From assembly GCA_963721455.1 (NCBI GenBank), contig CAVRJG010000022.1, forward strand, positions 1 through 13,534: a stretch of DNA of 13,534 nt, given 5' to 3'. The stretch comes from an uncultured Methanosarcinaceae archaeon. Lineage in GTDB: Archaea > Halobacteriota > Methanosarcinia > Methanosarcinales > Methanosarcinaceae. The notes beneath the pieces were generated by a model. That model was given only the letters and a program-made list of their open reading frames with translations, did not search any database and was not told where the DNA came from. Position numbers and translations under genes: made by a program. This document shows, piece after piece, positions 1,426 through 12,087 of the stretch. The stretch's first letter is position 1, and each line of letters begins with the position of its first letter.

Positions 1426-2340
1426 TTAAGCTTCAGTACTGTTACCAGTGCTGTTGTCCTGCATTCTGCCAGGGCCCATAGGGCCACAGCCTCTATGCCG
1501 CATCGGATCTTCTATATACATTCCTCTTTCCCTGGAAGAATGCATAATCTCCCTCAAATCTTCAAAAGATTTTGCTCCTTTGAGATCTTCCATCAGAGCC
1601 GTGAGTTCCGTAATCCTGCTGCTGAACTGCTCGTCACTCGTGTTTCCACTCTCATTCACTCTTGCCTTAATAAGCTCAATTTTCTTTTCAAGGGAATTAA
1701 GGGCCTGTGCGTGCTCATAGGTGAATATAACTTCCTGCAGTTCTGCTGCAGTCGAAGCCTCACTCACGTTAGTGGATAAGTTTTGAAGGTCAGAGATTCT
1801 TTCACTGAGCTCTTCAGTCCTGTCCTCATCACCGGCTTCCGTAAGGTTGGTCTGCTCAGCTTCCAGCCTTTCAGTCATATTTTCAAGGGAAGCAACTATT
1901 TCCGTCTGAACATCAGTGAAATTGTCATCGGTCACGTTCTCAATCTGGTCGAGGCCAAATAATCCAGGCATTCTACCGGGTCCCATGTGCATTTCGCCAG
2001 GACTCCTGTTCATTCCATCAGGCCCCATACATTCATTTGCCTGCCTGTGACTGGACAAAACCTTCTGGAGGTCGGATGCATTCGAAACCTCGCTTACCTC
2101 ACTATAGAAGCTTTGAAGCTCGGCAATTTTTTTACTAATCGAGTCAAGGATGTTTGCCTGAACATCAGTGAAATTTTCTTCGGTTATATTCCCTGCCGGA
2201 CCAGATCTTAGATTATACATCGGATCAGTCGAATTTGTTTGAGTTCCGTTTTCTGAAGCAAAAGCTCCCGAAGGGATGATACTTAATACAATCAGCACCA
2301 CCGCAAGACGGGAAATTGATTTTAATGCTTTTATTGTCAT
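1426..2340 (-). CDS. Secreted acidic alpha-helical repeat protein with Met/His/Cys-rich MGPG motifs (hypothetical)
   Basis: GGAGGT Shine-Dalgarno upstream, signal peptide (…AVVLIVLSIIPSGAFA), and internal repeats NITEENFTDVQ / NVTDDNFTDVQ and SNASDLQKVL / STAAELQEVI / KSFEDLREIM. MGPGRM occurs twice and there are many N-x-S/T sequons. Confidence 0.85.
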   Translation of the reverse strand: MTIKALKSISRLAVVLIVLSIIPSGAFASENGTQTNSTDPMYNLRSGPAGNITEENFTDVQANILDSISKKIAELQSFYSEVSEVSNASDLQKVLSSHRQANECMGPDGMNRSPGEMHMGPGRMPGLFGLDQIENVTDDNFTDVQTEIVASLENMTERLEAEQTNLTEAGDEDRTEELSERISDLQNLSTNVSEASTAAELQEVIFTYEHAQALNSLEKKIELIKARVNESGNTSDEQFSSRITELTALMEDLKGAKSFEDLREIMHSSRERGMYIEDPMRHRGCGPMGPGRMQDNSTGNSTEA

Positions 2341-2428
2341 AACGTACCTCCGTTAATTACCGTGTTTTCTTTTTTCCGTTTGTCTAGCCGGCTGTTCGCC
2401 TGTTGACAGTCCTGAAATTAACTGGCTT

Positions 2429-2540
2429 AAATATAAGCATACTTTCAGGAATAAGGGGATTAAAGAAATTTAATTTAAGAAATAAGCTTTTTTGGACTTT
2501 AGATTCAATAAAAAACCTTAAATATCCTGTTTAATACTTA
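2429..2540 (-). promoter_or_regulatory. Shared promoter/operator copy 1 (for 1426..2340)
   Basis: The minus strand reads AAAGCTT (from 2490)...TAAATTAAATTTCTTTA...AAGTATGCTTATATTT (from 2444), with the same spacing as the copies at 3490 and 7961. Confidence 0.65.
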
Positions 2541-2590
2541 TTAGGCCCCTTAAGCGCCGTATCTTTGAAAAGAAGAAATGTATTCATTTA

Positions 2591-2660
2591 TAAGGACTTG
2601 CGCAGTTGAACTGAGAAAAAGTAGCATGAAACTTCAAATAGTCTAATTCATAATATTTAT
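2591..2660. mobile_element. Diverged partial copy of the 773..890 MITE end
   Basis: TAAGGACTTGCGCAGTTGAACTGAGAAA...GTCTAATTCAT..ATTTAT aligns with the reverse complement of 822-891 (TTAGGACTTACGCGGTTGAACTGAGAAA...GTCTAAATTATGCATTTAT). The second terminal repeat is not found. Confidence 0.7.
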
Positions 2661-2796
2661 GATAGACCTGCTAACACAGTTGGTTAAGGATCTTACTGCT
2701 TTTATAATCCAATACGGGATTATACGAATCAGTCGTAATCAGTTTTTTACAGCCAGTTCTCATCGTCTGTTTCCGGGGAATTTTTTATTATAATCA

Positions 2797-2910
2797 TTTT
2801 CCCATTTCTTATGGTTGTTTTCCCATTTTTTATGGTTGTTTTCCCATTTTTATGGTTGTTTTCCCATTTTTATGGTTGTTTCCCCATTTCTTATAATTGC
2901 TTTCCTATTT
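2797..2910 (-). repeat. 21/20-bp tandem repeat encoding WENNHKK-type heptads
   Basis: CCCATTT recurs at 2801, 2822, 2843, 2863 and 2883, with CCTATTT at 2904 (periods 21, 21, 20, 20, 21). The minus-strand unit is TGG GAA AAC AAC CAT AA(G/A) AAA. Confidence 0.9.
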
Positions 2911-3174
2911 CCTGTAGTCGTCGCCATGTTTCTTATTGTTGTCCCATTTCTTTTTCTCGTTGTTCCATTTCTTCTGTTCGTTATCCCAGTTTCTCTTCTC
3001 ATTGTCCCACTTTTTCTGTTCGTCATCCCACTTCTTCTTCTCGGCGCCCCATTGCTTCTCAGTTTTTTCCGTAGACGCTGCGCTTACTGACGCAACAGTC
3101 ACTGACAGTACAAAACAAACTGCCAGCAAAATACCGAGTGTCTTTTTTATTCTGTCAAATGTTTTCTTTCCCAC
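2905..3174 (-). CDS. Secreted Trp-heptad repeat protein; likely truncated at TAG, ancestral frame extending to ~2750-2760
   Basis: AAGGAG SD and GTG start, signal peptide (KKTLGILLAVCFVLSVTVASVSA), and six W-x6 heptads (KKWDNEQ-like). The stop is a TAG where the repeat pattern predicts Trp (TGG), and the heptads continue downstream. Confidence 0.75.
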   Translation of the reverse strand: MGKKTFDRIKKTLGILLAVCFVLSVTVASVSAASTEKTEKQWGAEKKKWDDEQKKWDNEKRNWDNEQKKWNNEKKKWDNNKKHGDDYRK

Positions 3175-3458
3175 TATGCCTACTCCTTAATTTTGTCTAA
3201 TTGATGTATTTTAAACGGTCTATTTTTCAATTCCCTCTCCGCCGCAGAATCGATGAGATTGCTTGTGAAAATGGTTGAGTACAGTCTAAAAAGTTGCCTA
3301 TGTTATTTCGCGGGGGGTCCTAAGTGCCCTTTTGTCCGTTATATGACCTGAGAGCAAGGACACGTTTTCTAATTTAAAAAGATCGCCTGATGTAAGAAAA
3401 AATCCATTAAAGGCTTTTAAAGGGAAGTGAACCCTCAATACGGAAAAAATACGATGCA

Positions 3459-3556
3459 TAAAGGATTAAATTTAAAAATAGCGCCTTTTAAAGCGTAAAT
3501 GGTAAATTTAATCCTTTAATATAACTGAAAAAGTAAGTATGCTTTTATCATTAAAT
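3459..3556 (+). promoter_or_regulatory. Shared promoter/operator copy 2 with perfect 16-bp dyad (for the ArsR-like gene)
   Basis: TAAAGGATTAAATTTA (3459-3474) and TAAATTTAATCCTTTA (3503-3518) form a perfect inverted repeat. TAAGTATGCTTTTATCATTAAAT (3534-3556) follows and contains a TATA-like box. Confidence 0.75.
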
Positions 3557-3788
3557 CCATATATGGTATCTTCTGTCAGGAACACATCGAGCAGTACTAT
3601 CTCCCCCTAAAAATCCGAAAATATTCTATGGCAGCACAGCTTTGTACGTGCATGTAGAAACGGTTAAAACATCGAGGAAACCATATGTAGAATAGGCCTG
3701 CAATATCAGCTAGGTGTATTCCTGACTATACTTTTCAACTCTTTAAAGAGCTCTTAAGAAGCGTTAAGAAAATGTAACAGGGATAAAA

Positions 3789-4181
3789 ATGCCTGATAAC
3801 CCGGAGGAAAAATTGCTGATTCTGCAGCTTTCCGAAGATTCCAGAAAAATTGCCCGGCTTCTTTCGAATGAGACTTCAATCAGAATCCTTAAACTGCTTA
3901 ATAAGAAGTCGATGTCGGCAGGCGACCTTGCAGATGAGCTGGAGGTGCGCCTGAACACTCTTAAATATAATCTGGACTCGCTACTCGAGGCTGAAATGAT
4001 CAGAGTAAGGCACGTAAAATGGAGCCGGAAAGGGAGGGAAATAAAGGTTTATGAGGCAGTGGAAAAGGTAATCATTCTTCTGCCTGCAAAAAAGAACCTG
4101 GAAACTTCTTTTACGTCAATGAAGTTCTGGCAAAACATCCCTGAAAGTTTAGAGGGGCGGAAAATCCCCGAATTGTCGTGA
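3789..4181 (+). CDS. ArsR/SmtB-like winged helix-turn-helix transcriptional regulator
   Basis: LSNETSIRILKLL..KSMSAGDLADELEVRLNTLKYNLDSLLEAEMIRV..KWSRKGREIKVYE follows the ArsR/HTH_20 pattern. It has no Cys. Confidence 0.88.
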   Translation: MPDNPEEKLLILQLSEDSRKIARLLSNETSIRILKLLNKKSMSAGDLADELEVRLNTLKYNLDSLLEAEMIRVRHVKWSRKGREIKVYEAVEKVIILLPAKKNLETSFTSMKFWQNIPESLEGRKIPELS

Positions 4182-4324
4182 AATTTATTATAAGCCAGAC
4201 TTTTATGCGGTGATTATATCCTTTTCGATAAAAAATTTCAAAATTTAACCAAATATTAAAATACATGAATCCAGAGAAAAAGTACAGTCCAGCATTAAGT
4301 TCTTTCAATAGGACGTGTCCCGGT

Positions 4325-5434
4325 ATGAAAATCAAATATCTGTCCCTGCTCCTTATACTTGCAGGAATTATCCTGATCTCAGGCTGTGTTGATACGGAAG
4401 CTCAGCCCCATACTTATAAGTCTCCAGGAGATCTGTACAGGAGTATCTTTTATCCTTATACAGAACTTCCGGATCATGGAGGCCATGAGACGCCAGGTGT
4501 GCATCCTCACCGTCCGCTTCATAAAGGACATCATCCAGACTCTGAGTCCATCCAGACTCTGAGAGAAGCAACCTCCCTTCTCGACAGCAATATAGAGAAG
4601 GCAGAAATTATTTCCACGCGGCTTGAAGAAGGAATTCAGCGTTTCAAAGCCGAGGGTGAGGATGTTAGCAGACTTGAAGCCTTAATTGAGGAATATAACC
4701 GCCTTTTAGAGGAAGCAAAAGAATACAGAGCCCTCGCAGATACAGTTGCCGATGAAGGAAACAACAGCTCAACTACAGATTCAGGAAACGGTTCATCCGA
4801 AAGTACTGAAAGAGAAAATTTGATCAGGTCTCAAAAGCGTATGATTCAAGCTAATCACGTCCTGAAAGAGATTTTCGAAGAATTAAAGTACACGATGTCT
4901 GGGAGCGAAGAGCTCAACAGCACATCCCGACTCAGTGCGGCAGGAGACGGAAAAGCTCTTCTGGCAGGCAGTTTTGCCCTTAACATTCACCTGGAAAATG
5001 GATTGATGGCAATACCGGAGATATCTCCCGATTCCGAAATATATATAAAAGGGGATTATACGTTTGAAGAAAAAACCGGTATGCAGGATAAGGTACTCGT
5101 GTACCATATACAGTCTGCTGACGTGAACATCTCCGATTCTTTTAAGGCAGTAATGATCAGCGGCACAAACATTACCCTTACTGCAGATGGAGAAGGATAT
5201 TTGGCTTTCATGGGAAACGGCACATACAGGATTGAGGATGCAGGCAAAATAATAAAAGAAGAAAACTGGGGGGTCCCTTTCTTTGAAGAAGAAAGGAATC
5301 CCGATGAGTTAGGACCTGATGAAGAGGATCATGACACAGTAACCGGGCATAAAACAGAGAGTAATATTACCGAAGAGAACAGAGTTGATCCGGAAGCACG
5401 GGATAAAAGAAGCTTTATTAAAGAAAACCCATAG
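4325..5434 (+). CDS. Lipoprotein with His-rich N-terminus, coiled-coil region and beta-rich C-terminal domain (hypothetical)
   Basis: Likely start is ATG 4325 rather than 4265: MKIKYLSLLLILAGIILISGC is a lipoprotein signal with lipobox ISGC. It is followed by DHGGHETPGVHPHRPLHKGHHPD, amphipathic helices, then Gly/beta-strand-rich sequence. Confidence 0.82.
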   Translation: MKIKYLSLLLILAGIILISGCVDTEAQPHTYKSPGDLYRSIFYPYTELPDHGGHETPGVHPHRPLHKGHHPDSESIQTLREATSLLDSNIEKAEIISTRLEEGIQRFKAEGEDVSRLEALIEEYNRLLEEAKEYRALADTVADEGNNSSTTDSGNGSSESTERENLIRSQKRMIQANHVLKEIFEELKYTMSGSEELNSTSRLSAAGDGKALLAGSFALNIHLENGLMAIPEISPDSEIYIKGDYTFEEKTGMQDKVLVYHIQSADVNISDSFKAVMISGTNITLTADGEGYLAFMGNGTYRIEDAGKIIKEENWGVPFFEEERNPDELGPDEEDHDTVTGHKTESNITEENRVDPEARDKRSFIKENP

Positions 5435-5510
5435 CTTTCTAGAAAAAAATATAAGAATAAAAATTACCTGAAAGAATGAAAAAATCCAAATTGCAACTCT
5501 GGATTTACTG

Positions 5511-6692
5511 ATGAAAATGAATCTGAGGTTCTACATTATTTGCATTGCGGCTGTACTAGCTTTAGTTGGACCTGCCGCAGCAAACAGCAACAACACCGCC
5601 ACAATCCATGGAGAAGTATACGGCTGGGATACCTTCGAACCTCTTGAAAATGCGGTGGTTGATGTAAATTCCACGCCCTCTCAATCAATGGTGGCAAAAT
5701 ACGGCCTTTATTCCTTTAAACTGGCTCCCGGAGATTATTCTATTAAAGCCAGGTATTATCAAAACAGCACTCTTATTTATTCGGCAGAAGAAACTGTCCG
5801 GATTAAAGATGAAGGAGATTACGTGCGCGATCTCCTGCTTCTTCCCGTTTATTCCGAAGAGCTCATGGACGGCTCCGAAGTAAACGGATCCTCTGCAAAC
5901 CTGAACGAAAGTGCAGAAAACTCTTCCTCGAATACAGTAAATCCGCTAGCAGAAACAGCTATAGATAAAGTAAATAATTCCAATAGCGTGAATCTCACCG
6001 AAGAAAGCGTAGCTGATTCTTCAACTGTAAGTTACCTTTTAATATCCCTTGCGCTTTTTATCCTGCTCGCAGGCGGGTACCAGCTTTCCAGAAAGAATAA
6101 AAAGATAGAGAAAAATGCGCTTCAGGAATTAAAAATGGAACATATGACCGGATCTTTCTCCGGATCTGGAAATGTGCCCGAGCTTTCGGTAGAAGCCCCT
6201 TATAAAAATACTGAACCGGAATCGAAACAGGAATCTCAGGAAAAGACTGTAGAAACCGGATTTGCAACAGAGCCGGTAAAAGAGCAAGTAAAAGAGCAAG
6301 TAAAAGAGCTAGAACCCGAAATACCGGAAAAGAAGGTGCAGGCAGAGCTAGCAGAAAGTAAAGTGGAATATCCGGTACAGGAAAAAGAACTTGCGGAATC
6401 CGGGCCAGAAGAAGAGAACGAAATTATTTCCCTTGAAGAACCTGAAGATAGTCCCGAAATTGAAACCCCTGCTCCCAAAAAGAAGCTCCCGCTTCCCGCA
6501 GACCTCCAGGTGGTCATGGACATAATTCGAGGCCAGGGAGGCCGGATTACCCAGAAAGACCTCCGCAGCAAGCTGAAATATTCCGAAGGAAAAGTCAGCC
6601 TCATGCTTGCCGACCTTGAAAGGAGAGAACTGATTGAGAAGTTCAAGCGGGGGCGCGGGAATGTTGTGATCCTGAGAGATGAGGAGCACTAA
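5511..6692 (+). CDS. Membrane-anchored winged-HTH protein: signal peptide, carboxypeptidase-regulatory-like beta domain, TM helix, acidic linker, C-terminal wHTH (COG2512-like)
   Basis: Signal peptide …LALVGPAAA; ATIHGEVY..TFEPLENAVVDV…YGLYSFKLAPGDYSIKARY; TM YLLISLALFILLAGGYQL followed by SRKNKK; Glu/Pro-rich linker; and DLQVVMDIIRGQGGRITQKDLRSKLKYSEGKVSLMLADLERRELIEKFKRGRGNVVIL. Confidence 0.88.
   Translation: MKMNLRFYIICIAAVLALVGPAAANSNNTATIHGEVYGWDTFEPLENAVVDVNSTPSQSMVAKYGLYSFKLAPGDYSIKARYYQNSTLIYSAEETVRIKDEGDYVRDLLLLPVYSEELMDGSEVNGSSANLNESAENSSSNTVNPLAETAIDKVNNSNSVNLTEESVADSSTVSYLLISLALFILLAGGYQLSRKNKKIEKNALQELKMEHMTGSFSGSGNVPELSVEAPYKNTEPESKQESQEKTVETGFATEPVKEQVKEQVKELEPEIPEKKVQAELAESKVEYPVQEKELAESGPEEENEIISLEEPEDSPEIETPAPKKKLPLPADLQVVMDIIRGQGGRITQKDLRSKLKYSEGKVSLMLADLERRELIEKFKRGRGNVVILRDEEH
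6276..6311 (+). repeat. In-frame 12-bp tandem repeat x3 (VKEQ VKEQ VKEL)
   Basis: GTAAAAGAGCAA GTAAAAGAGCAA GTAAAAGAGCTA within the acidic linker. Confidence 0.9.
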
Positions 6693-6711
6693 AACTCAGA
6701 ACCTTCCATTC

Positions 6712-6750
6712 CTCACTTTTTCATCTCACTTTTTTCATATTTGCATATTT
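6712..6750 (+). terminator. Oligo-T archaeal terminator candidates after the wHTH gene
   Basis: CTCACTTTTTCAT CTCACTTTTTTCAT and further T-runs about 20 bp after the stop codon. Confidence 0.45.
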
Positions 6751-6780
6751 TGAGAACTCTGCTCATCCGGATAATTTAAT

Positions 6781-6852
6781 TATGTACTCGATAACTATGA
6801 TTTTTATATACTCGATAACTCTGATTTTTATATACTCGATAACTCTGATTTT
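6781..6852. repeat. 24-bp tandem repeat x3 between convergent genes
   Basis: TAT(G/A)TACTCGATAACT(A/C)TGATTTT at 6781, 6805 and 6829, contiguous with no spacers. Confidence 0.92.
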
Positions 6853-6870
6853 TCCTGCTTTTTACCGACC

Positions 6871-7152
6871 TTAATCCAGAGGCACATAGTTTGCCTCGAT
6901 AACTTCACCCTCTTTCATTTCCCTTTCTCTTCTGAAAAAGTTCTTTGTTGTAAATACTATCCATCTCCAGTGGAGTGCAATGTGGACAACAAAGAAGACC
7001 AGCATCAGGATTCCAACTTTATCGTGGATCAACCTCAAGATCGGGCCTGTAGCACGGTGGTTAAAATACATTACAAGACCTGAATAACCTACTAAGGCAA
7101 ATTGAACGAAGAGTGCTAAATCCACGAGATAATTGAGTTTTATTCTTTTCAT
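6871..7152 (-). CDS. DUF4405 family small membrane protein (cytochrome b-like His pattern)
   Basis: Likely start ATG 7152 (MKRIKLNYLVDLALF..SGLV). The LIHDKVGILMLVFFVVHIALHWRWI segment is the characteristic H-x13-H-x3-HW motif of DUF4405. Confidence 0.85.
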   Translation of the reverse strand: MKRIKLNYLVDLALFVQFALVGYSGLVMYFNHRATGPILRLIHDKVGILMLVFFVVHIALHWRWIVFTTKNFFRREREMKEGEVIEANYVPLD

Positions 7153-7320
7153 TTCTTCACTCCATTTTAACATTTACATCTATATTTTTGTAACATTATC
7201 AATTTCAGTTCATTTGATTGAGTTTCATTTGATTGAGTTCTGCTTTATGAGCCATTTACCATCGCAGTTATGCTGTTCTCCAGTTGACTGCTGTACATCC
7301 CCTTAATTGCCAGAAAAAGA

Positions 7321-7429
7321 AATAAAGATACTTGCAAAAAAAGTGACAAATATAGATTTATTTTAAATTTAAAGTTATTTTAAAGCTTTTTTTTCAGAAA
7401 TAATGTTTTATAAATGCATTTAATACTTA
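7321..7429 (-). promoter_or_regulatory. Weaker candidate copy of the shared promoter (for DUF4405)
   Basis: The minus strand has TAAGTATTAAA (7429-7419), AAAGCTT (from 7389) and AAGTATCTTTATTT (from 7333). The identical 11-mer lies 96 bp before AAGTAT both here and at 2540/2444. Confidence 0.4.
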
Positions 7430-7559
7430 ATCGGGCTGTTTTTGTGCCTTAGTTTCACGAGAATTTATAAAAACCGAATTTTCAAGATCATATCCACAAC
7501 ATTACTCCGTTTTTTCTTAAAAACGAAATTAAATACCAAAGGGTAGTAAGAAGTGATCG

Positions 7560-7917
7560 GACGATATTGGAGCAGAAACTGCGTCAACTGTAATCGCAAA
7601 TAGGCTGAATGTAGACATATTTCACAAAGCGAGAATTTCTGCCAGTTAAAGATTCTAAACTCGGTAGAAGCCGGAAACAGTAGATACGGATGCCCAAAGA
7701 TCAGCAGCATCCCTTTTTTTCTTTCATACTTCTGGCAGATTCAGAATAGAATAAAATGGCCGGTTTATTACACAAACAGTACTAAGTTTGAATGGCGGGA
7801 CTAAAACAGGGATATAAGTCTGGTTTTGTCGAAGGAAACAGCTCTTATGGAAGGCCTGAAGACCCTTTTGAGAAAACACCAAAGTGAATAATACTTTACC
7901 GGGATTCCATTTACCTT
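7560..7917 (+). pseudogene. Decayed gene relic, tentatively restriction-endonuclease-like
   Basis: The start-less open frame 7604-7804 reads ...VEAGNSRYGCPKISSIPFFLSYFWQIQNRIKWPVYYTNS..., which is strongly protein-like. Adjacent frames give DDIGAETASTVIANRLNVDIF and a broken LP(D)S(Y)LP. The family assignment is from recollection only and is unverified. Confidence 0.5.
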
Positions 7918-7929
7918 TTAGAGAGCGAT

Positions 7930-8028
7930 TAAAGAGTGAATTATCTAAATAACGTATAGAAAAGCTTCATTGGTAAATTAATTCCTTAGATTTCCTGTTT
8001 TTAGCTAAGTATGCTTTTATTATTAAAT
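7930..8028 (+). promoter_or_regulatory. Shared promoter/operator copy 3 (for the ABC operon)
   Basis: TAAGTATGCTTTTATTATTAAAT (8006-8028) matches 3534-3556 at 22/23. TGGTAAATTAATTCCTT (7971-7987) matches 3500-3516 at 15/17. AAAGC is at 7961. Confidence 0.75.
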
Positions 8029-8067
8029 GCCAATGAAGGGGATGACTGCCTACTCCTGAGAAGCTGG

Positions 8068-8385
8068 CAGATAAGGCATCCTCAGATAAGGCGTCCTGCA
8101 TCTGACAGGTGCCTTAATTCTGTATGGCTCGATGGGAATGGAATATGTAGAAACAGGATTCCTCGCCACTTTATAGGGATCCTTTAATCGATACTCAGGT
8201 TTTCCCATTTGAAGAACGAAAGAAGGAAGCAGTCAAAATCTACACTCCAGAAAACGAGGCACTGTGCATCTTGCAGGTGCCTCAAAAAACGCGGATCAGC
8301 TATCAACCTGATCAACTATCAACCTGTTATCAATCCCGTAATTCAATGAAGACAATCAAATAACAGTAAGTCAAATGACAGTAAT
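8068..8385 (+). repeat. Cluster of short tandem duplications and two related hairpins in the ABC operon leader
   Basis: CAGATAAGGC(A/G)TCCT x2 (8068-8097); hairpins at 8087-8116 and 8256-8283; GATCA(G/A)CTATCAACCT x2 (from 8294); TCAAAT(A/G)ACAGTAA x2 (from 8356). Confidence 0.75.
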
Positions 8386-8495
8386 AAAAAATTTAGATTT
8401 AATCTTTAGATTAGATGTTTCAGACAGAGTACGAACAAAAAGCAAACTTATTCAGGCAACCCTGAAGAGGCGCTGACATGATTTAGAGGGTATGT

Positions 8496-9416
8496 ATGAC
8501 ATTTACCGAGATTATAGAGACATTTAAAACGAAATTAAATCCCTCATATATTCTGAATTCGCTCGAGAAAGCAGCAGATTTCTACAGTGACTCGGAAGAC
8601 GATTCCGAGAAGAATGATCTAGGGGAGAATCTAAAAAACAATCCATACAGCAGTTCAGTCAGTGATTTCGTTAAAAGTTCTGACGCAGAAAATATCTCCA
8701 GGAACGGAAAAGTTCCATTTATCAAACTGACCGATGTATGGAAAACCTACCAGATGGGGGAGGTAGAATTTGCAGCCCTCAAGGGGATAAATCTTGAGAT
8801 TTATGAAGGGGAGTTCCTTGTAGTCCTTGGACCCAGCGGAAGCGGAAAAAGTACACTTATGAACCTGCTCGGCTGCCTTGATTTGCCCTCAAAAGGCACA
8901 GTCTTCCTGAACTCAAGCGATATCTCAGAACTTGACGAGTCCGAGCTTGCCAGGATCCGGGGCCAGATGATAGGATTCATTTTCCAGAGCTTCAATCTTA
9001 TTCCAACCCTGAACACCCAGGAAAACGTTCTGTTGCCCCTGGAATTTCAGGAAGAAGATGCACAAAAAGCCCGAAAAAAAGCTGCATACCTGCTTGATAT
9101 AGTAGGACTCTCGGACAAGAGACATAACCTTCCTTCCCAGCTCTCAGGCGGGCAGAGGCAGAGAGTTGCAATAGCCCGCTCTCTTGCAGTGAACCCGCCT
9201 ATAATCCTTGCAGACGAGCCTACCGGAAACCTGGACAGCAAGACCGGGAATTATATTCTGGATTTTCTGGACGGATTGAACAAAAAAGAAGGCAAAACAA
9301 TCATTATTGTGACCCATGACCTCGAAATTGTAAAGTATGCGACAAGAATTGTGTACATCAGGGATGGGCAAATAGAAAAAATCGAAGAAAGCAAGAAAAA
9401 CAAACCGGAGGAATAA
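8496..9416 (+). CDS. ABC transporter ATP-binding protein, LolD/MacB family, with ~70-aa N-terminal extension
   Basis: Walker [11 protein letters not shown]-loop [10 protein letters not shown], signature [13 protein letters not shown], Walker [13 protein letters not shown] and H-loop VTHD. Confidence 0.96.
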
Positions 9417-9417
9417 A

Positions 9418-10809
9418 ATGAAAAAATTTTCCTTGCTAACGCTCTTGCTCATATTTTCATCAGTTATGGTGCTGGGAGCAGGAACAGCTTATGCTGCAAG
9501 CGGATTGATAGACTCCTCGTCTGTTCAGGTAAACATGACTAACCAGAATCCCGATGCTGCACGTCCAGGGGAACCGGTTGAACTTACTGTCAGCGTGCAG
9601 AATGTAGGAAACAATGACCTGAAAGATATTAAGGTCGCAATCGAACCCGGATACCCTTTCAGTGAAGTTTCCGGAGAAACTCTTGAAAAGCAGGTATCTT
9701 ACCTGAATGCACGGCAGGATGATAATGATGCAGCTGTCCTTAAATTCAAGCTCATGACTGATTCCAATGCTTCCGAAGGCACATATGACGTCAACATCGT
9801 CACAACCGCCAGAGAGGACGGCTCATCATCAAAGACAGTAACTACAACAAAAACCATCCAGCTCGAAATAAGGGGTAAAGAGTACGCGCAGATTGTTACC
9901 ATAAACAAAGCAAATATTGACGTGGTGACGGAAGAGTCTCTGGAATTTATCATAACGAACACAGGAAATTCACCCCTGAAAAATATGGTTATTTCCTGGA
10001 AAGATCCCAAAGGTGTTATCCTCCCGGTCTACTCGGACAATACAAAGTACATTAAGTACCTGGAAGCCGGTCAATCCGTGACAGTTGCTTACTCTGTCAT
10101 GGCAGATGTAAACGCCAATCCCGGGCTCTATACTCTTGATATAAACCTTAGCTTTGAAGACTATGAATCAAATACAAAAAATATCCAGACAACAGCAGGA
10201 CTTTTCGTAGGTGGGGCAACTGACTTCGATGTTTCCTTTTCTGAAAGCTCCGCAGGAGCGACCTCTCTTTCAGTCGCAAACGTGGGCAATAACATGGCAT
10301 ATTCGGTAAAAGTATCGGTTCCGGATCAAGATGATTACAAGGTATCAGGAAGTTCTTCGACTATTGTGGGAAATCTTGAGAAAGGAGACTATACAATCGC
10401 TTCTTTTGATGTTGCGAGCACACAGGCTGCAGGAGGGAGTGCAGGAGAAGTGTCAGGTACCGCAAAAGCCAGTGCTGTAGCCGGAGACAATGCAAGTTCT
10501 GTTTCAAAGGATACCAATCCACTAAAAGTCCAGATCGAATATACGGATGCGAGAGGAGAAAGAATAACAGTCGATAAGGATGTGGCAGTCCAGATGTCCG
10601 CACCTGCAGGAACTGGCACTGAAAGCGGATCAAGAGCAACAGGTAACAGCAGTGGTCTCAGTTCATACCTGCTGTATATTGTGGTATTAGTGCTTGCCGG
10701 AGCAGGAGTATTCGTGTACCGCAAGAAAAAACAGGCAAGGAACGAGAAACAATTCGGAGATAAAAAGCCTGAAGACCAGAAGCACGGCTCCGGGACAATA
10801 AGAGACTGA
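9418..10809 (+). CDS. COG1361 S-layer-family / Ig-like surface protein with C-terminal membrane anchor
   Basis: Signal peptide; QNPDAARPGEPVELTVSVQNVG, ITNTGNSPLKN and SVANVGNNMAYSV beta-sandwich motifs; C-terminal TM YLLYIVVLVLAGAGVFVY followed by RKKK. It starts 1 bp after the ATPase stop. Confidence 0.88.
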   Translation: MKKFSLLTLLLIFSSVMVLGAGTAYAASGLIDSSSVQVNMTNQNPDAARPGEPVELTVSVQNVGNNDLKDIKVAIEPGYPFSEVSGETLEKQVSYLNARQDDNDAAVLKFKLMTDSNASEGTYDVNIVTTAREDGSSSKTVTTTKTIQLEIRGKEYAQIVTINKANIDVVTEESLEFIITNTGNSPLKNMVISWKDPKGVILPVYSDNTKYIKYLEAGQSVTVAYSVMADVNANPGLYTLDINLSFEDYESNTKNIQTTAGLFVGGATDFDVSFSESSAGATSLSVANVGNNMAYSVKVSVPDQDDYKVSGSSSTIVGNLEKGDYTIASFDVASTQAAGGSAGEVSGTAKASAVAGDNASSVSKDTNPLKVQIEYTDARGERITVDKDVAVQMSAPAGTGTESGSRATGNSSGLSSYLLYIVVLVLAGAGVFVYRKKKQARNEKQFGDKKPEDQKHGSGTIRD

Positions 10810-10845
10810 AAAGAGCAATTTCCATAGAGAACGGAAGGATGCAAG

Positions 10846-12087
10846 ATGAGAAACTCAACCTACCTGAAAATGGCCCTTAACATGCTTCTTCACAGCAAAC
10901 TCCGAAGCTGGTTGACCATTATCGGGATAGTTATAGGGGTCGGATCTGTTGTTGGCATCCTCTCCCTCGGGGACGCCATGCAGGAACAGGTTCAGAGCAG
11001 GCTTGCCGAGATGGACCTGACAAAAATAGCCATAACTCCAGGGTATACTAAGGCAATGTCAAGTATGCACGGGCCCGGAGAAGGAAGAGGCGGTACGACT
11101 ACGGATGTCGAATTGACAGATGATGATATTGATGCACTCCAGGGCATAGAAGGTATACAGTATATATCCGGTGAGATTTCCGGCAGTGAAGAAGTGGATT
11201 ATGCAGGGGAAAATGCGACTCTTTCAATTACAGGTGTAGACCCTCAGGTCTGGAAATACATGACTACTCTGGAGACGCAATCCGGAAGATTGCTCGAGCC
11301 TGCTGACAAAAACGTCGCTGTCATAGGGAGCGGCGTTGCCAGTGAAATTTATGACCAGGACATAGGGATCAACCAGGTAGTAACAATAAACGGTAAATCG
11401 GTGCGCATTGTCGGAATCCTCGCAGAAGAAGGCGGGCATGGTGACAGAAGCATCTACATGCCGATAAATGTGGCAGTGAACCTGATTACAGATGCAAAAA
11501 AAGATGTCTTTGATACTATCACAGTAAAAGCCAAGAGTGAGGATCTGGTGGACACAGTGATGGAAGATATCACAGATAAGCTCATGATATCCAGGCACAT
11601 TGTCCGGGAAGATGACGTGGACTTTTCCGTGACAGCTTCAAAGTCCATGGCTGAGTCAGTTACCGAAATGACCTCTTCGATGACCCTTTTCCTGGGAGCC
11701 ATTGCAGCCGTGTCCCTGCTGGTAGGAGCTGTGGGTATTGCAAACACTATGTTTACCTCGGTCCTTGAAAAGACGAAGGAAATAGGCACTATGAAAGCCA
11801 TAGGAGCAAAAAACAGGGATATTCTTATGATCTTCCTCTTTAATTCCGCAATGGTCGGTTTTGTTGGCGGTATCTTTGGAGTCATGCTGGGAGCTCTTGT
11901 TTCAGCTCTGTTCCCAATGCTTGGCGTGACTCTGATGAGATCAGGGGGTGGAACAAGCATATCACTTTCTCCTCACCTGATGGTCCTGGGGCTTGGCCTG
12001 GCAGTTATGATAGGCGTGATCTCAGGAGTGGTCCCTGCATACAGGGCATCGAAACTGAAGCCTGTAGATGCCTTGAGGTACGAATAA
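10846..12087 (+). CDS. ABC transporter permease, MacB/FtsX family
   Basis: KLRSWLTIIGIVIGVGSVV TM1, a large extracytoplasmic domain, IAAVSLLVGAVGIANTMFTSVLEKTKEIGTMKAIGA, and C-terminal PAYRASKLKPVDALRYE. Confidence 0.96.
   Translation: MRNSTYLKMALNMLLHSKLRSWLTIIGIVIGVGSVVGILSLGDAMQEQVQSRLAEMDLTKIAITPGYTKAMSSMHGPGEGRGGTTTDVELTDDDIDALQGIEGIQYISGEISGSEEVDYAGENATLSITGVDPQVWKYMTTLETQSGRLLEPADKNVAVIGSGVASEIYDQDIGINQVVTINGKSVRIVGILAEEGGHGDRSIYMPINVAVNLITDAKKDVFDTITVKAKSEDLVDTVMEDITDKLMISRHIVREDDVDFSVTASKSMAESVTEMTSSMTLFLGAIAAVSLLVGAVGIANTMFTSVLEKTKEIGTMKAIGAKNRDILMIFLFNSAMVGFVGGIFGVMLGALVSALFPMLGVTLMRSGGGTSISLSPHLMVLGLGLAVMIGVISGVVPAYRASKLKPVDALRYE

Follow-up and report, generated by a model that had tools for sequence, protein, structure and literature searches.

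Transmembrane transcription regulators (TTRs), defined as proteins that combine a DNA-binding domain with at least one transmembrane (TM) region, were surveyed by Demey et al. (2023), who reported 1,384 of them in 367 archaeal species (PMC10269533). TTRs acting together with partner proteins are referred to as co-component systems, for which ToxR-ToxS, TcpP-TcpH, and VtrA-VtrC serve as examples (PMC10269533). Characterised membrane-bound factors of archaea include ArnR and ArnR1 of Sulfolobus, which carry an N-terminal helix-turn-helix (HTH) and a C-terminal membrane part (PMC13286277). In this work, we analyzed a 13,534-nt stretch of DNA (hereafter the window), i.e., one whole contig (C22; CAVRJG010000022.1) of the 3.94-Mb, 73-contig genome of an uncultured Methanosarcinaceae archaeon (GCA_963721455.1; G000 in the locus labels), which the source names of close homologs assign to the genus Methanosarcina. 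It carries, side by side, the genes of a lipoprotein and of a 393-amino acid (aa) membrane protein ending in a winged HTH (wHTH), together with a 14-nt box that recurs in the promoters of neighboring genes. We think it rather probable that this cluster constitutes a TTR system with an extracytoplasmic partner and a local regulon, and that the most likely regulator acting on the box, judging by the sequence comparisons presented below, is the membrane wHTH protein.

The 393-aa protein is composed of a signal peptide, a conserved ectodomain (residues 27-119), a single TM segment (167-193), an acidic cytoplasmic linker, and the wHTH (324-393), and thus unites a DNA-binding domain and a TM segment within one polypeptide, as the definition of a TTR demands. 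The wHTH matched DUF7343 (PF24034) at residues 331-388 (E-value 4.2e-15; 55.8 bits against a cut-off of 27.6); it matched DUF7343 and MarR-type models only and none of the OmpR type, and of the 120 homologs of the regulator that are listed, nearly all carry a precomputed PF24034 match. The wHTH is presumably cytoplasmic, as the TM segment is followed by RKNKKIEK (positive inside) and N-x-S/T sequons lie on its N-terminal side. Within the genus, the wHTH is nearly invariant and represents the most conserved part of the whole protein, and the linker is hypervariable in length and sequence.

The 14-nt box, AAGTAWGCTTWTAT, was found three times in the window, as compared with a mean of 0.04 matches in shuffled sequences (none of the 200 shuffles reached three). 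The 12-mer GTATGCTTWTAT has four copies in the entire genome, three of them in the window and the fourth adjoining a regulator paralog. The three sites of the window (classes A, B, and C; Table 1) precede, respectively, the unit of the ArsR-like, lipoprotein, and regulator genes, the MacB-type ATP-binding cassette (ABC) operon, and the gene of a 304-aa secreted protein. As read from its letters, the box is a near-palindrome (dyad), AAGYATRCTT, fused to a TATA box, and it overlaps the positions of both the TATA box and the transcription factor B (TFB) recognition element (BRE). About 45 nt upstream of all three core boxes there is a second conserved element, Box 1. Among the 62 box sites of all fetched loci, exact AAGCTT was present within -60 to -30 at 30, and in 26 of these 30 it stood at exactly -45, whereas 195 of 11,400 random control windows contained it. 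A third element, TAAATTnAnTCC, occurs near -33 in many promoters of classes A, B, and C. Downstream of the box stands conserved sequence specific to each class, and the flanks differ among the three classes. A box-like AAGTGCCCTTTTGT... followed by TTATAT is also located at 3322-3365 (+), in the stretch separating the 89-aa gene from the class A promoter. Locus L031 has kept this sequence (7225), which could be a further or a decayed promoter.

An earlier note on this DNA had proposed a hierarchy, in which the membrane wHTH protein acts through a shared operator on an ArsR-like regulator, secreted proteins, and the ABC operon, and had suggested synteny anchored on the regulator gene family (5511..6692) as a check. 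This check was run on 16 loci surrounding orthologs of the 393-aa protein, originating from 15 other genomes of the genus, and was passed across the genus. The lipoprotein gene is located directly upstream of the regulator gene in all 16 loci, and the ArsR-like gene is complete in 14 of them, being interrupted by a stop codon in one and reduced to a remnant in another. Ten loci have a full-length, divergent 304-aa gene, three a partial one, and one a distant one (it was not found in the remaining two of the 16); the ABC operon follows in 12, DUF4405 genes (one to three copies each) occur in nine, and the 89-aa gene in four. In two genomes (G004 and G024) the ABC operon is not in the cluster, and ABC operons with class B promoters are present elsewhere (L038, L039, and L047). 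The boxes are kept along with the genes: class A in 15/15 loci and class C in 11/11 examined loci with a full ortholog (both with up to two mismatches), and class B in 13/13 loci, 12 of them exact. Locus L027 has a box with one mismatch at the position equivalent to that of the degenerate box in front of the DUF4405 gene of the window.

The claim that three differently oriented transcription units have a promoter element in common has therefore withstood this analysis, the element being real, rare, and conserved, and gene calls and domain profile searches bore out the statement that envelope proteins and regulators dominate positions 1426..12087. Membership in the shared promoter class was found for these three units, but not for everything that the cluster contains, as the 89-aa gene lacks a box and the DUF4405 gene has only a degenerate one; the latter gene is a possible member of the regulon. 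The coordinates of all features are collected in Table 1.

Table 1. Genes, promoter elements, and leader block of the cluster (positions within the window; aa, amino acids; ORF, open reading frame)
Feature	Position	Strand	Remarks
304-aa secreted protein	1426..2340	-	signal peptide; without Pfam family; target of the class C promoter
Core box, class C, AAGTATGCTTATAT	2431..2444	-	104 nt before the ATG of the 304-aa gene
Box 1, AAAGCTT	2484..2490	-	45 nt upstream of the class C core box
89-aa secreted protein	2905..3174	-	signal peptide; W/K-rich repeats
Inverted repeat, GGATTAAATTTA...TAAATTTAATCC	3459..3518		surrounds the class A Box 1; its right arm is the conserved -33 element
Box 1 variant, AAAGCGT	3490..3496	+	class A promoter
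Core box, class A, AAGTATGCTTTTAT	3535..3548	+	254 nt before the ATG of the ArsR-like gene
ArsR-like HTH protein, 130 aa	3789..4181	+	HTH_20; first gene behind the class A promoter
Lipoprotein	4325..5434	+	lipobox ISGC; ORF open from 4265
Membrane regulator, 393 aa	5511..6692	+	signal peptide, ectodomain, one TM segment, C-terminal DUF7343 wHTH
DUF4405 membrane protein	6871..7173	-	Pfam match
Degenerate core box, AAGTATCTTTATTT	7320..7333	-	three mismatches; upstream of the DUF4405 gene
Box 1, AAAGCTT	7961..7967	+	class B promoter
Core box, class B, AAGTATGCTTTTAT	8007..8020	+	489 nt before the ATG of the ABC ATPase gene
Conserved leader block	8225..8283	+	ends in the hairpin 8256-8283, with compensatory changes
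ABC transporter ATPase, LolD/MacB-like	8496..9416	+	profile matches
463-aa anchored Ig-like protein	9418..10809	+	signal peptide; NPCBM_assoc, CARDB, DUF11 repeat; C-terminal TM anchor
MacB-type permease	10846..12087	+	MacB_PCD and FtsX

The box is not confined to the cluster. The exact 14-mer occurs in 81 copies in 25 genomes of the genus, against two copies of the reversed control, and in 16 other genomes of the order two copies stand against two of the control. To the sites within the cluster we added a sample of 20 fetched loci outside it, comprising 21 sites, of which 15 stand before an ABC operon, a homolog of the 304-aa gene, or the genes of W-rich small secreted or other signal-peptide proteins. 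In detail, four of these 15 sites precede ABC operon genes, and three each precede genes of 304-aa homologs, of W-rich small secreted proteins, and of helical proteins with a signal peptide whose genes adjoin a regulator paralog; of the last two sites, one precedes the gene of a Cys-rich and the other that of a small PKD-like secreted protein. Judged by this sequence evidence, the box is the mark of a regulon of exported proteins that extends throughout the genus. Since several of the targets are paralogous (304-aa homologs, W-rich small proteins, and duplicated ABC operons), it might be argued that the likeness of the promoters merely reflects shared ancestry, i.e., that duplicated genes carried their promoters with them and that no common regulation exists. 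This we hold to be very improbable, as the box is common to three units (the ArsR and ABC operons and the 304-aa gene) that are not related to one another as paralogs, as the box and Box 1 hold their register across the genus in spite of diverged flanks, and as the box recurs in another genus at about 25% protein identity.

A two-box promoter of the same type, located at G000 C16:20979(-), and also at L050 (G024), precedes the gene of a 167-189-aa signal-peptide protein with CC-x-x-C repeats throughout, which possibly is a metal-binding secreted member of the regulon.

The box and the regulator are associated at the regulator paralogs as well. As many as 38 of the 81 exact boxes are located within 6 kb of a member of the regulator family, a zone amounting to 0.85% of the bases. 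The genome G000 encodes three paralogs of the membrane protein, on contigs C22, C53, and C8, and box promoters adjoin each of them. On C53, the paralog is flanked by two small signal-peptide genes, one with the exact box and the other with the variant AAGTATATTTATAT; on C8, a two-box promoter precedes a gene that diverges from the paralog and encodes a helical protein of 391 aa with a signal peptide. Neither locus contains an ArsR-like gene. In other genomes of the genus, all six C53-type loci have a box variant, mostly AAGTATATTT, before signal-peptide genes, and in four of five C8-type loci AAGTATACTT or AAGAATGCTT takes this place; by the relaxed pattern applied here, 57 of 300 random pieces of the same size also gave a match. 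At the C53-type loci L066-L070 and L075, a conserved TTATTTTATTAATTAAACC (about -45 to -27) replaces Box 1 upstream of the box variant, so that the upstream half of the promoter is also paralog-specific. Possibly, the box variant depends on a single position of the recognition helix, occupied by G, V, or S and followed by the conserved KVSLML.

The same arrangement was recognized beyond the genus. The 393-aa protein has a match in each of 41 genomes sampled from the order and in 37 of 121 sampled from the phylum (E-value up to 1e-12), where the matches concentrate in three families (11/11, 13/13, and 10/13). Genus g4 represents a different family of the order. In 4/4 of the g4 loci, the homolog and the gene of a 333-417-aa signal-peptide helical protein are arranged divergently, and each of these intergenic regions contains the box AAG(T/C)AT(G/A)(C/T)TTATCT, 84-91 nt before the helical-protein gene. 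In one g4 locus the box is a perfect palindrome, AAGCATGCTT, with TATA-like runs on either side.

These observations bear on two other explanations of the box. According to the first, another, unlinked transcription factor binds the box, and the membrane protein and the lipoprotein are only members of its regulon, e.g., envelope proteins whose wHTH serves a different purpose. The link between the regulator and the box is indeed one of association throughout, and 43 of the 81 exact boxes do not lie near a member of the regulator family; however, the association was seen for three types of paralogs, each with its own variant, as well as in a second genus, and the wHTH is the very part of the membrane protein that is most strongly conserved, which makes this explanation, in our opinion, rather unlikely. 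According to the second, a variant basal factor, i.e., an alternative TATA-binding protein (TBP) or TFB, recognizes the 14-mer as a special core promoter, and the regulators only share or adjoin this class of promoter. The box does cover the TATA and BRE positions, and three TBP genes are mentioned for M. acetivorans (PMC5112694, citing Reichlen et al. 2010). On the other hand, the conserved part is dyad-symmetric and in the g4 locus mentioned above it serves two divergent TATA boxes, each regulator paralog has a box variant of its own, and two 99% complete genomes, G008 and G017, yielded two TBP repeat matches each, which we read as one TBP gene (a count concerning TBP only), and nevertheless keep box promoters: all three classes in G017, and A and C in G008, whose locus is without the ABC operon. 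With such genomes in view, an alternative TBP was discarded as an unlikely reader of the box, and the explanation by basal factors as a whole appears quite improbable.

The membrane wHTH protein was also weighed against the other DNA-binding protein encoded in the cluster. The ArsR-like protein has an ArsR-type HTH (HTH_20, 46.1 bits against a cut-off of 27; HTH_5, 23.1 against 22), but with NCBIfam HTH_metalloreg it scored 28.8 bits, where the cut-off is 55. ArsR-family proteins typically autoregulate at palindromes, and the ArsR-like protein could accordingly bind the box as an autorepressor of its own operon and of the neighboring genes, leaving the membrane wHTH protein with other targets or none. 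Its gene heads the class A unit, the two HTH models are matched above their cut-offs, and the gene is kept at 70-85% identity in 14 of the 16 loci. We consider this course of events unlikely, because the box adjoins regulator paralogs at loci devoid of an ArsR-like gene (G000 C53 and C8, and genus g4), and because G012 (99% complete) has only a 38-aa remnant of the ArsR-like gene, while it keeps intact the class A and class B boxes, the lipoprotein and regulator genes, and the ABC operon. Apart from this remnant, G012 yielded a single ArsR-like match, a 50%-identical paralog within a 317-aa frame. In G019, the ArsR-like gene is interrupted by a stop codon. Since it is a remnant in G012 while the boxes and the cluster persist, the ArsR-like gene is, on the sequence comparison, dispensable, and its product is a weaker candidate for the binder of the box than the membrane regulator. 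The hierarchy proposed in the earlier note is consequently retained only in part: the course from the membrane wHTH protein through the operator to the targets is supported by the comparisons, given that the box adjoins all three paralogs and the homolog in another genus and precedes the 304-aa gene as well as the units headed by the ArsR-like and ABC ATPase genes, but the ArsR-like protein is not supported as a link of the chain.

The -33 element TAAATTnAnTCC was also taken into account as the ArsR-like protein's own site and was dropped, as the element persists in G012, where the gene is a remnant. Paralogs of the ArsR-like protein (50-54% identity over about 100 aa) form the beginning of 317-338-aa frames at G012 C22:156713, G004 C1:2954188, G002 C45:73149, and G009 C110:9669.

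Concerning the partner of the regulator, the lipoprotein is composed of two long helices and a beta-rich C-terminal half, and no Pfam model matched it above its cut-off. Orthologs and the lipobox ISGC point to position 4325 as its likely start. A complex of the regulator ectodomain (residues 25-130) and the mature lipoprotein (residues 22-330, numbered from the Met at 4325) was modelled. The interface confidence score ipSAE was 0.70, 0.70, and 0.72 in three runs, compared with 0.01 for the best of three controls; of 157 solved complexes, 116 attain the mark used for this score, as do 2 of 215 mismatched pairs, a calibration that is approximate here, where custom alignments were used. The predicted local distance difference test (pLDDT) value of the partner did not fall below 72 (each of the three runs gave 73), and the runs had no fewer than 61% of the contacts in common. 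The contacts fall into the most conserved stretches of both proteins (residues 31-42, 64-68, and 103-120 of the regulator, and 78-100 and 163-188 of the lipoprotein), and those of the lipoprotein repeat every 3-4 residues, in a helix-like manner. A sequence search of the PDB with both families gave nothing below an E-value of 0.01; as neither family has a solved relative by sequence, the score of the model does not stem from the memory of a known complex. The lipoprotein is thus predicted by the model to be the extracytoplasmic partner of the regulator and to bind its ectodomain, a role that the earlier note had not suggested for it.

Relatives of the lipoprotein were also detected beside other members of the regulator family. 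The 391-aa neighbor of the C8 paralog resembles it weakly (25.7% identity over 140 aa; E-value 1e-5) and has the motif of the second contact helix in common with it, and three of the four g4 neighbors match it distantly (E-values from 1e-9 to 1e-14). It therefore appears that the regulator and a helical partner were duplicated as pairs. This leads to a broader, tentative proposal, to which we would give somewhat less than an even chance: that, in the genus and its relatives, a large part of the secreted and envelope proteome is governed by paired sensors, each consisting of a type-I tethered wHTH regulator and a secreted or lipid-anchored helical partner. A Methanosarcina genome would encode three such pairs, each with a variant of its own of the near-palindromic operator fused to the TATA box.

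If the membrane protein does regulate through the box, the cluster may be pictured as follows. The regulator would be a type-I membrane protein with a beta-rich ectodomain outside, one TM helix, a disordered acidic linker, and the DUF7343 domain inside. The lipoprotein would bind the ectodomain via its two long helices, the modelled pair forming a sensor at the cell surface. The wHTH, probably as a dimer, would recognize AAGYATRCTT at the BRE position, running into the TATA box (as in AAGTAWGCTTWTAT); the dyad symmetry of the core agrees with binding by a winged-helix dimer. Carried by a linker longer than 130 residues, the wHTH would bind this dyad in the BRE/TATA regions of three units, namely the operon to which its own gene belongs (with the ArsR-like and lipoprotein genes), the divergent 304-aa gene, and the MacB-type ABC operon, and perhaps the DUF4405 gene would be regulated as well. 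Binding would either recruit TFB and TBP to a promoter lacking a normal BRE or block their access, and we favor activation of these BRE-poor promoters over repression only slightly. The wHTH might act either tethered or after cleavage. The two paralogous regulators encoded elsewhere in the genome would do likewise, with their own box variants and their own genes of secreted proteins.

It should be stressed that a number of observations weigh against assigning the box to the membrane regulator. Binding of the wHTH to the box is deduced from association, and 43 of the 81 exact boxes are, as mentioned above, not near any regulator gene. The TATA element lies within the box, so part of the conservation of the box is basal, and a near-palindrome of 10 bp is short for a wHTH dimer. 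The genomes of the genus are kin, and counts across them are not independent. Within the window, no box stands in front of the 89-aa gene, although its paralogs elsewhere carry one. In G019, the regulator and lipoprotein genes are kept while the class A core is degenerate; at C8-type locus L071, no box was found by the relaxed pattern; and in four of eight loci outside the genus, the box pattern was missing beside the homologs. Six of the 21 sites outside the cluster (L041, L048, L042, L054, L055, and L057) have no clear target, two being located inside a permease gene, one in a class-B-like promoter without an ORF, and three being unclear. The score of the complex is a model confidence, obtained with our own alignments of 22 and 14 rows. 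Finally, within the main cluster, the ArsR-like protein is a possible second or alternative binder of the box.

As regards G019, its locus L037 (G019 C84:1-14900) combines the stop codon in the ArsR-like gene and the degenerate class A core with a regulator that has neither the ABC operon nor the 304-aa gene adjoining it, and the cluster of this genome appears to be decaying.

The signal to which the system might respond was considered next to the suggestion of metal stress made previously. Metal ligands of ArsR/SmtB proteins are Cys and His residues, and the ArsR-like protein contains no Cys and one His. The His-rich stretch (loop) of the lipoprotein is specific to this window and is not conserved in its orthologs. 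The metal-stress part of the earlier interpretation is thus not upheld, and what is left is a weak lead, namely the loops of the 304-aa family that contain Cys, Met, and His, and the Cys-rich secreted protein encoded behind the same type of promoter. A functional, non-homologous analogy to the Cpx, Bae, and Zra responses with their secreted helical proteins Spy, CpxP, and ZraP had also been proposed. This part of the interpretation found no support either, and none of the three protein families appeared among the Pfam matches (E-value up to 1) of the 304-aa protein and the lipoprotein or in the family tallies of 19 and 14 of their relatives (for which the best 25 of 111 families, and all 13, were shown). 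Both proteins have only sub-threshold Pfam matches of the coiled-coil type.

The 304-aa protein contains two internal repeats, 16 N-x-S/T sequons, and loops rich in Cys, Met, His, Gly, and Pro. Its family comprises 222 proteins. Among the 120 that are listed, all named ones are designated 'hypothetical', the taxa named are Methanosarcina except for one metagenome bin filed under Alphaproteobacteria, and a precomputed Pfam domain is missing from 118. In the neighboring 89-aa gene, the W/K-rich units are encoded by a 21-nt repeat of 12 copies (2767-3055), which extends about 140 nt past the stop codon; the gene may formerly have been longer, like its paralogs of 126-136 aa elsewhere.

The ABC operon proved to be of the MacB type (MacB_PCD, 124.5 bits; FtsX, 79.6 bits; ABC_tran, 113.4 bits). 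Its ATPase matched the LolD and MacB models with E-values of 1e-66 and 3e-65, yet stayed under their equivalog cut-offs, and no domain of a MacA/HlyD adaptor or of an outer channel was detected in the 13 proteins of the window that were scanned. Between the class B box and the start codon of this operon there is a leader of 360-600 nt (8021-8495 in the window), in which the conserved block listed in Table 1 was distinguished. In its terminal hairpin, 94.7% of the cells are paired and 6 of the 11 pairs are changed on both sides; none of 500 shuffles reached this level, and slid controls were 30-47% paired. The hairpin has no match in Rfam. We suggest that this block may be a cis-regulatory leader RNA. 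In one sediment metatranscriptome, a match to a high-depth contig begins near position 8235, which says nothing about the rank of expression, as contigs cannot be used for that purpose.

The same metatranscriptome contains a small share of the words of the window, and its contigs cover parts of the 304-aa, regulator, ABC, and last genes, although contigs cannot show starts, strands, levels, or co-expression, and nothing follows from the parts left uncovered. For the window as a whole, Rfam (E-value up to 1) and tRNA scans gave no match, and look-ups in the ESM Atlas returned only the protein's own or unnamed archaeal clusters, apart from one weak lead to DUF5667 at 0.77.

On its left side, the cluster is bordered by a truncated TauE gene and transposase fragments of the IS630 type, and on its right side by the gene of a CxxCxxCC protein. 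The former gene (365-727) is a 120-aa TauE/SafE ORF covering only positions 2-109 of the 237 of the profile, and it adjoins two frame-shifted N-terminal fragments of an IS630-family transposase (925-1429). Copies resembling terminal inverted repeats, 81-92% complementary, are present at 768-803, 860-895, and 2593-2618, one of them between the promoter of the 304-aa gene and the 89-aa gene. These repeats and the transposase fragments are remnants of a mobile element or of a miniature inverted-repeat transposable element (MITE), partly within the cluster and partly next to it. The regulator and DUF4405 genes converge on a gap in which a 24-nt unit is repeated three times in tandem (6780-6853; 92% alike).

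Membrane-bound gene control is a kind of regulation that has barely been studied in archaea. In the library of papers searched, no paper contained 'DUF7343', none combined Methanosarcina with the core of the box (of 138 papers with a 10-mer of the box, the 15 listed were unrelated), and nothing on this cluster was found among works on MacB or ArsR and envelope stress; public transcriptome tables of Methanosarcina may nevertheless contain these genes. Species of Methanosarcina are genetically tractable, and the locus offers natural controls in the form of paralog-specific box variants and of species that have lost the ArsR-like gene. From sequence alone, a DUF7343 regulator, an operator in the core promoter, coherent targets, and a predicted partner with contact residues could be put together, and the system could show how a tethered factor works on a TBP/TFB promoter and how methanogens sense their surroundings at the envelope. 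If the proposal of paired sensors is correct, no archaeal co-component system before this one would have had its operator and regulon defined.

When compared with well-known bacterial systems, the cluster shows both common and distinct features. The Cpx, Bae, and Zra systems are two-component envelope responses involving Spy, CpxP, and ZraP, and like them the cluster unites, in one (putative) regulon, a sensor in the membrane with helical accessory proteins that are secreted and with a transporter of the efflux type; unlike them, it is not a two-component system, its 304-aa protein and lipoprotein have no match to the Spy, CpxP, or ZraP families (E-value up to 1), and no evidence of a stress or metal signal was found. 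Another reference is provided by MacAB-TolC and by BceRS-BceAB of Firmicutes, which are MacB-type ABC modules with their own sensors. The common features are here a permease with MacB_PCD and FtsX, a separate LolD-like ATPase, and a (putative) dedicated regulator located in the membrane. In contrast to MacAB-TolC, MacA/HlyD and TolC were not detected, and the gene of an anchored Ig-like protein is inserted between the ATPase and permease genes; in contrast to BceRS, the regulator is a one-component TTR and not a histidine kinase pair.

A closer parallel is found in the co-component TTRs. As described for ToxR-ToxS, TcpP-TcpH, and VtrA-VtrC (PMC10269533), a single-pass membrane protein with a presumably cytoplasmic wHTH and a sensor domain outside is encoded alongside a putative partner that would act outside the membrane, and genes of envelope and secreted proteins would be under control. 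The topology is, however, reversed in the archaeal regulator, whose sensor is N-terminal, behind a signal peptide, and whose wHTH is C-terminal; the DNA-binding domain is DUF7343 (MarR-like) and not of the OmpR type found in ToxR; and the partner is a helical lipoprotein without a family, as opposed to the lipocalin-like ToxS and VtrC. The operator, moreover, is placed on an archaeal BRE/TATA, and the likeness to the bacterial systems is one of kind rather than of demonstrated homology.

The statement of the earlier note that no characterised equivalent exists in methanogens is too strong as far as the kind of system is concerned, since TTRs with partners are described (PMC10269533) and ArnR and ArnR1 are archaeal (PMC13286277). 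Archaeal factors with a known site, regulon, and input are very few, and among the membrane-bound ones ArnR and ArnR1 are those named as characterised in the sources cited here. ArnR belongs to another phylum, its targets are archaellum and pili genes, it is controlled by phosphorylation, and no partner lipoprotein figures in the sections on ArnR that we used (PMC13286277). The order of its domains is the reverse of that of the 393-aa regulator, a difference of architecture. With ArnR and ArnR1 of Sulfolobus acidocaldarius (PMC13286277, PMC6396743), the regulator described in this work nevertheless has in common that it would be an archaeal membrane-bound one-component factor governing genes of the cell surface.

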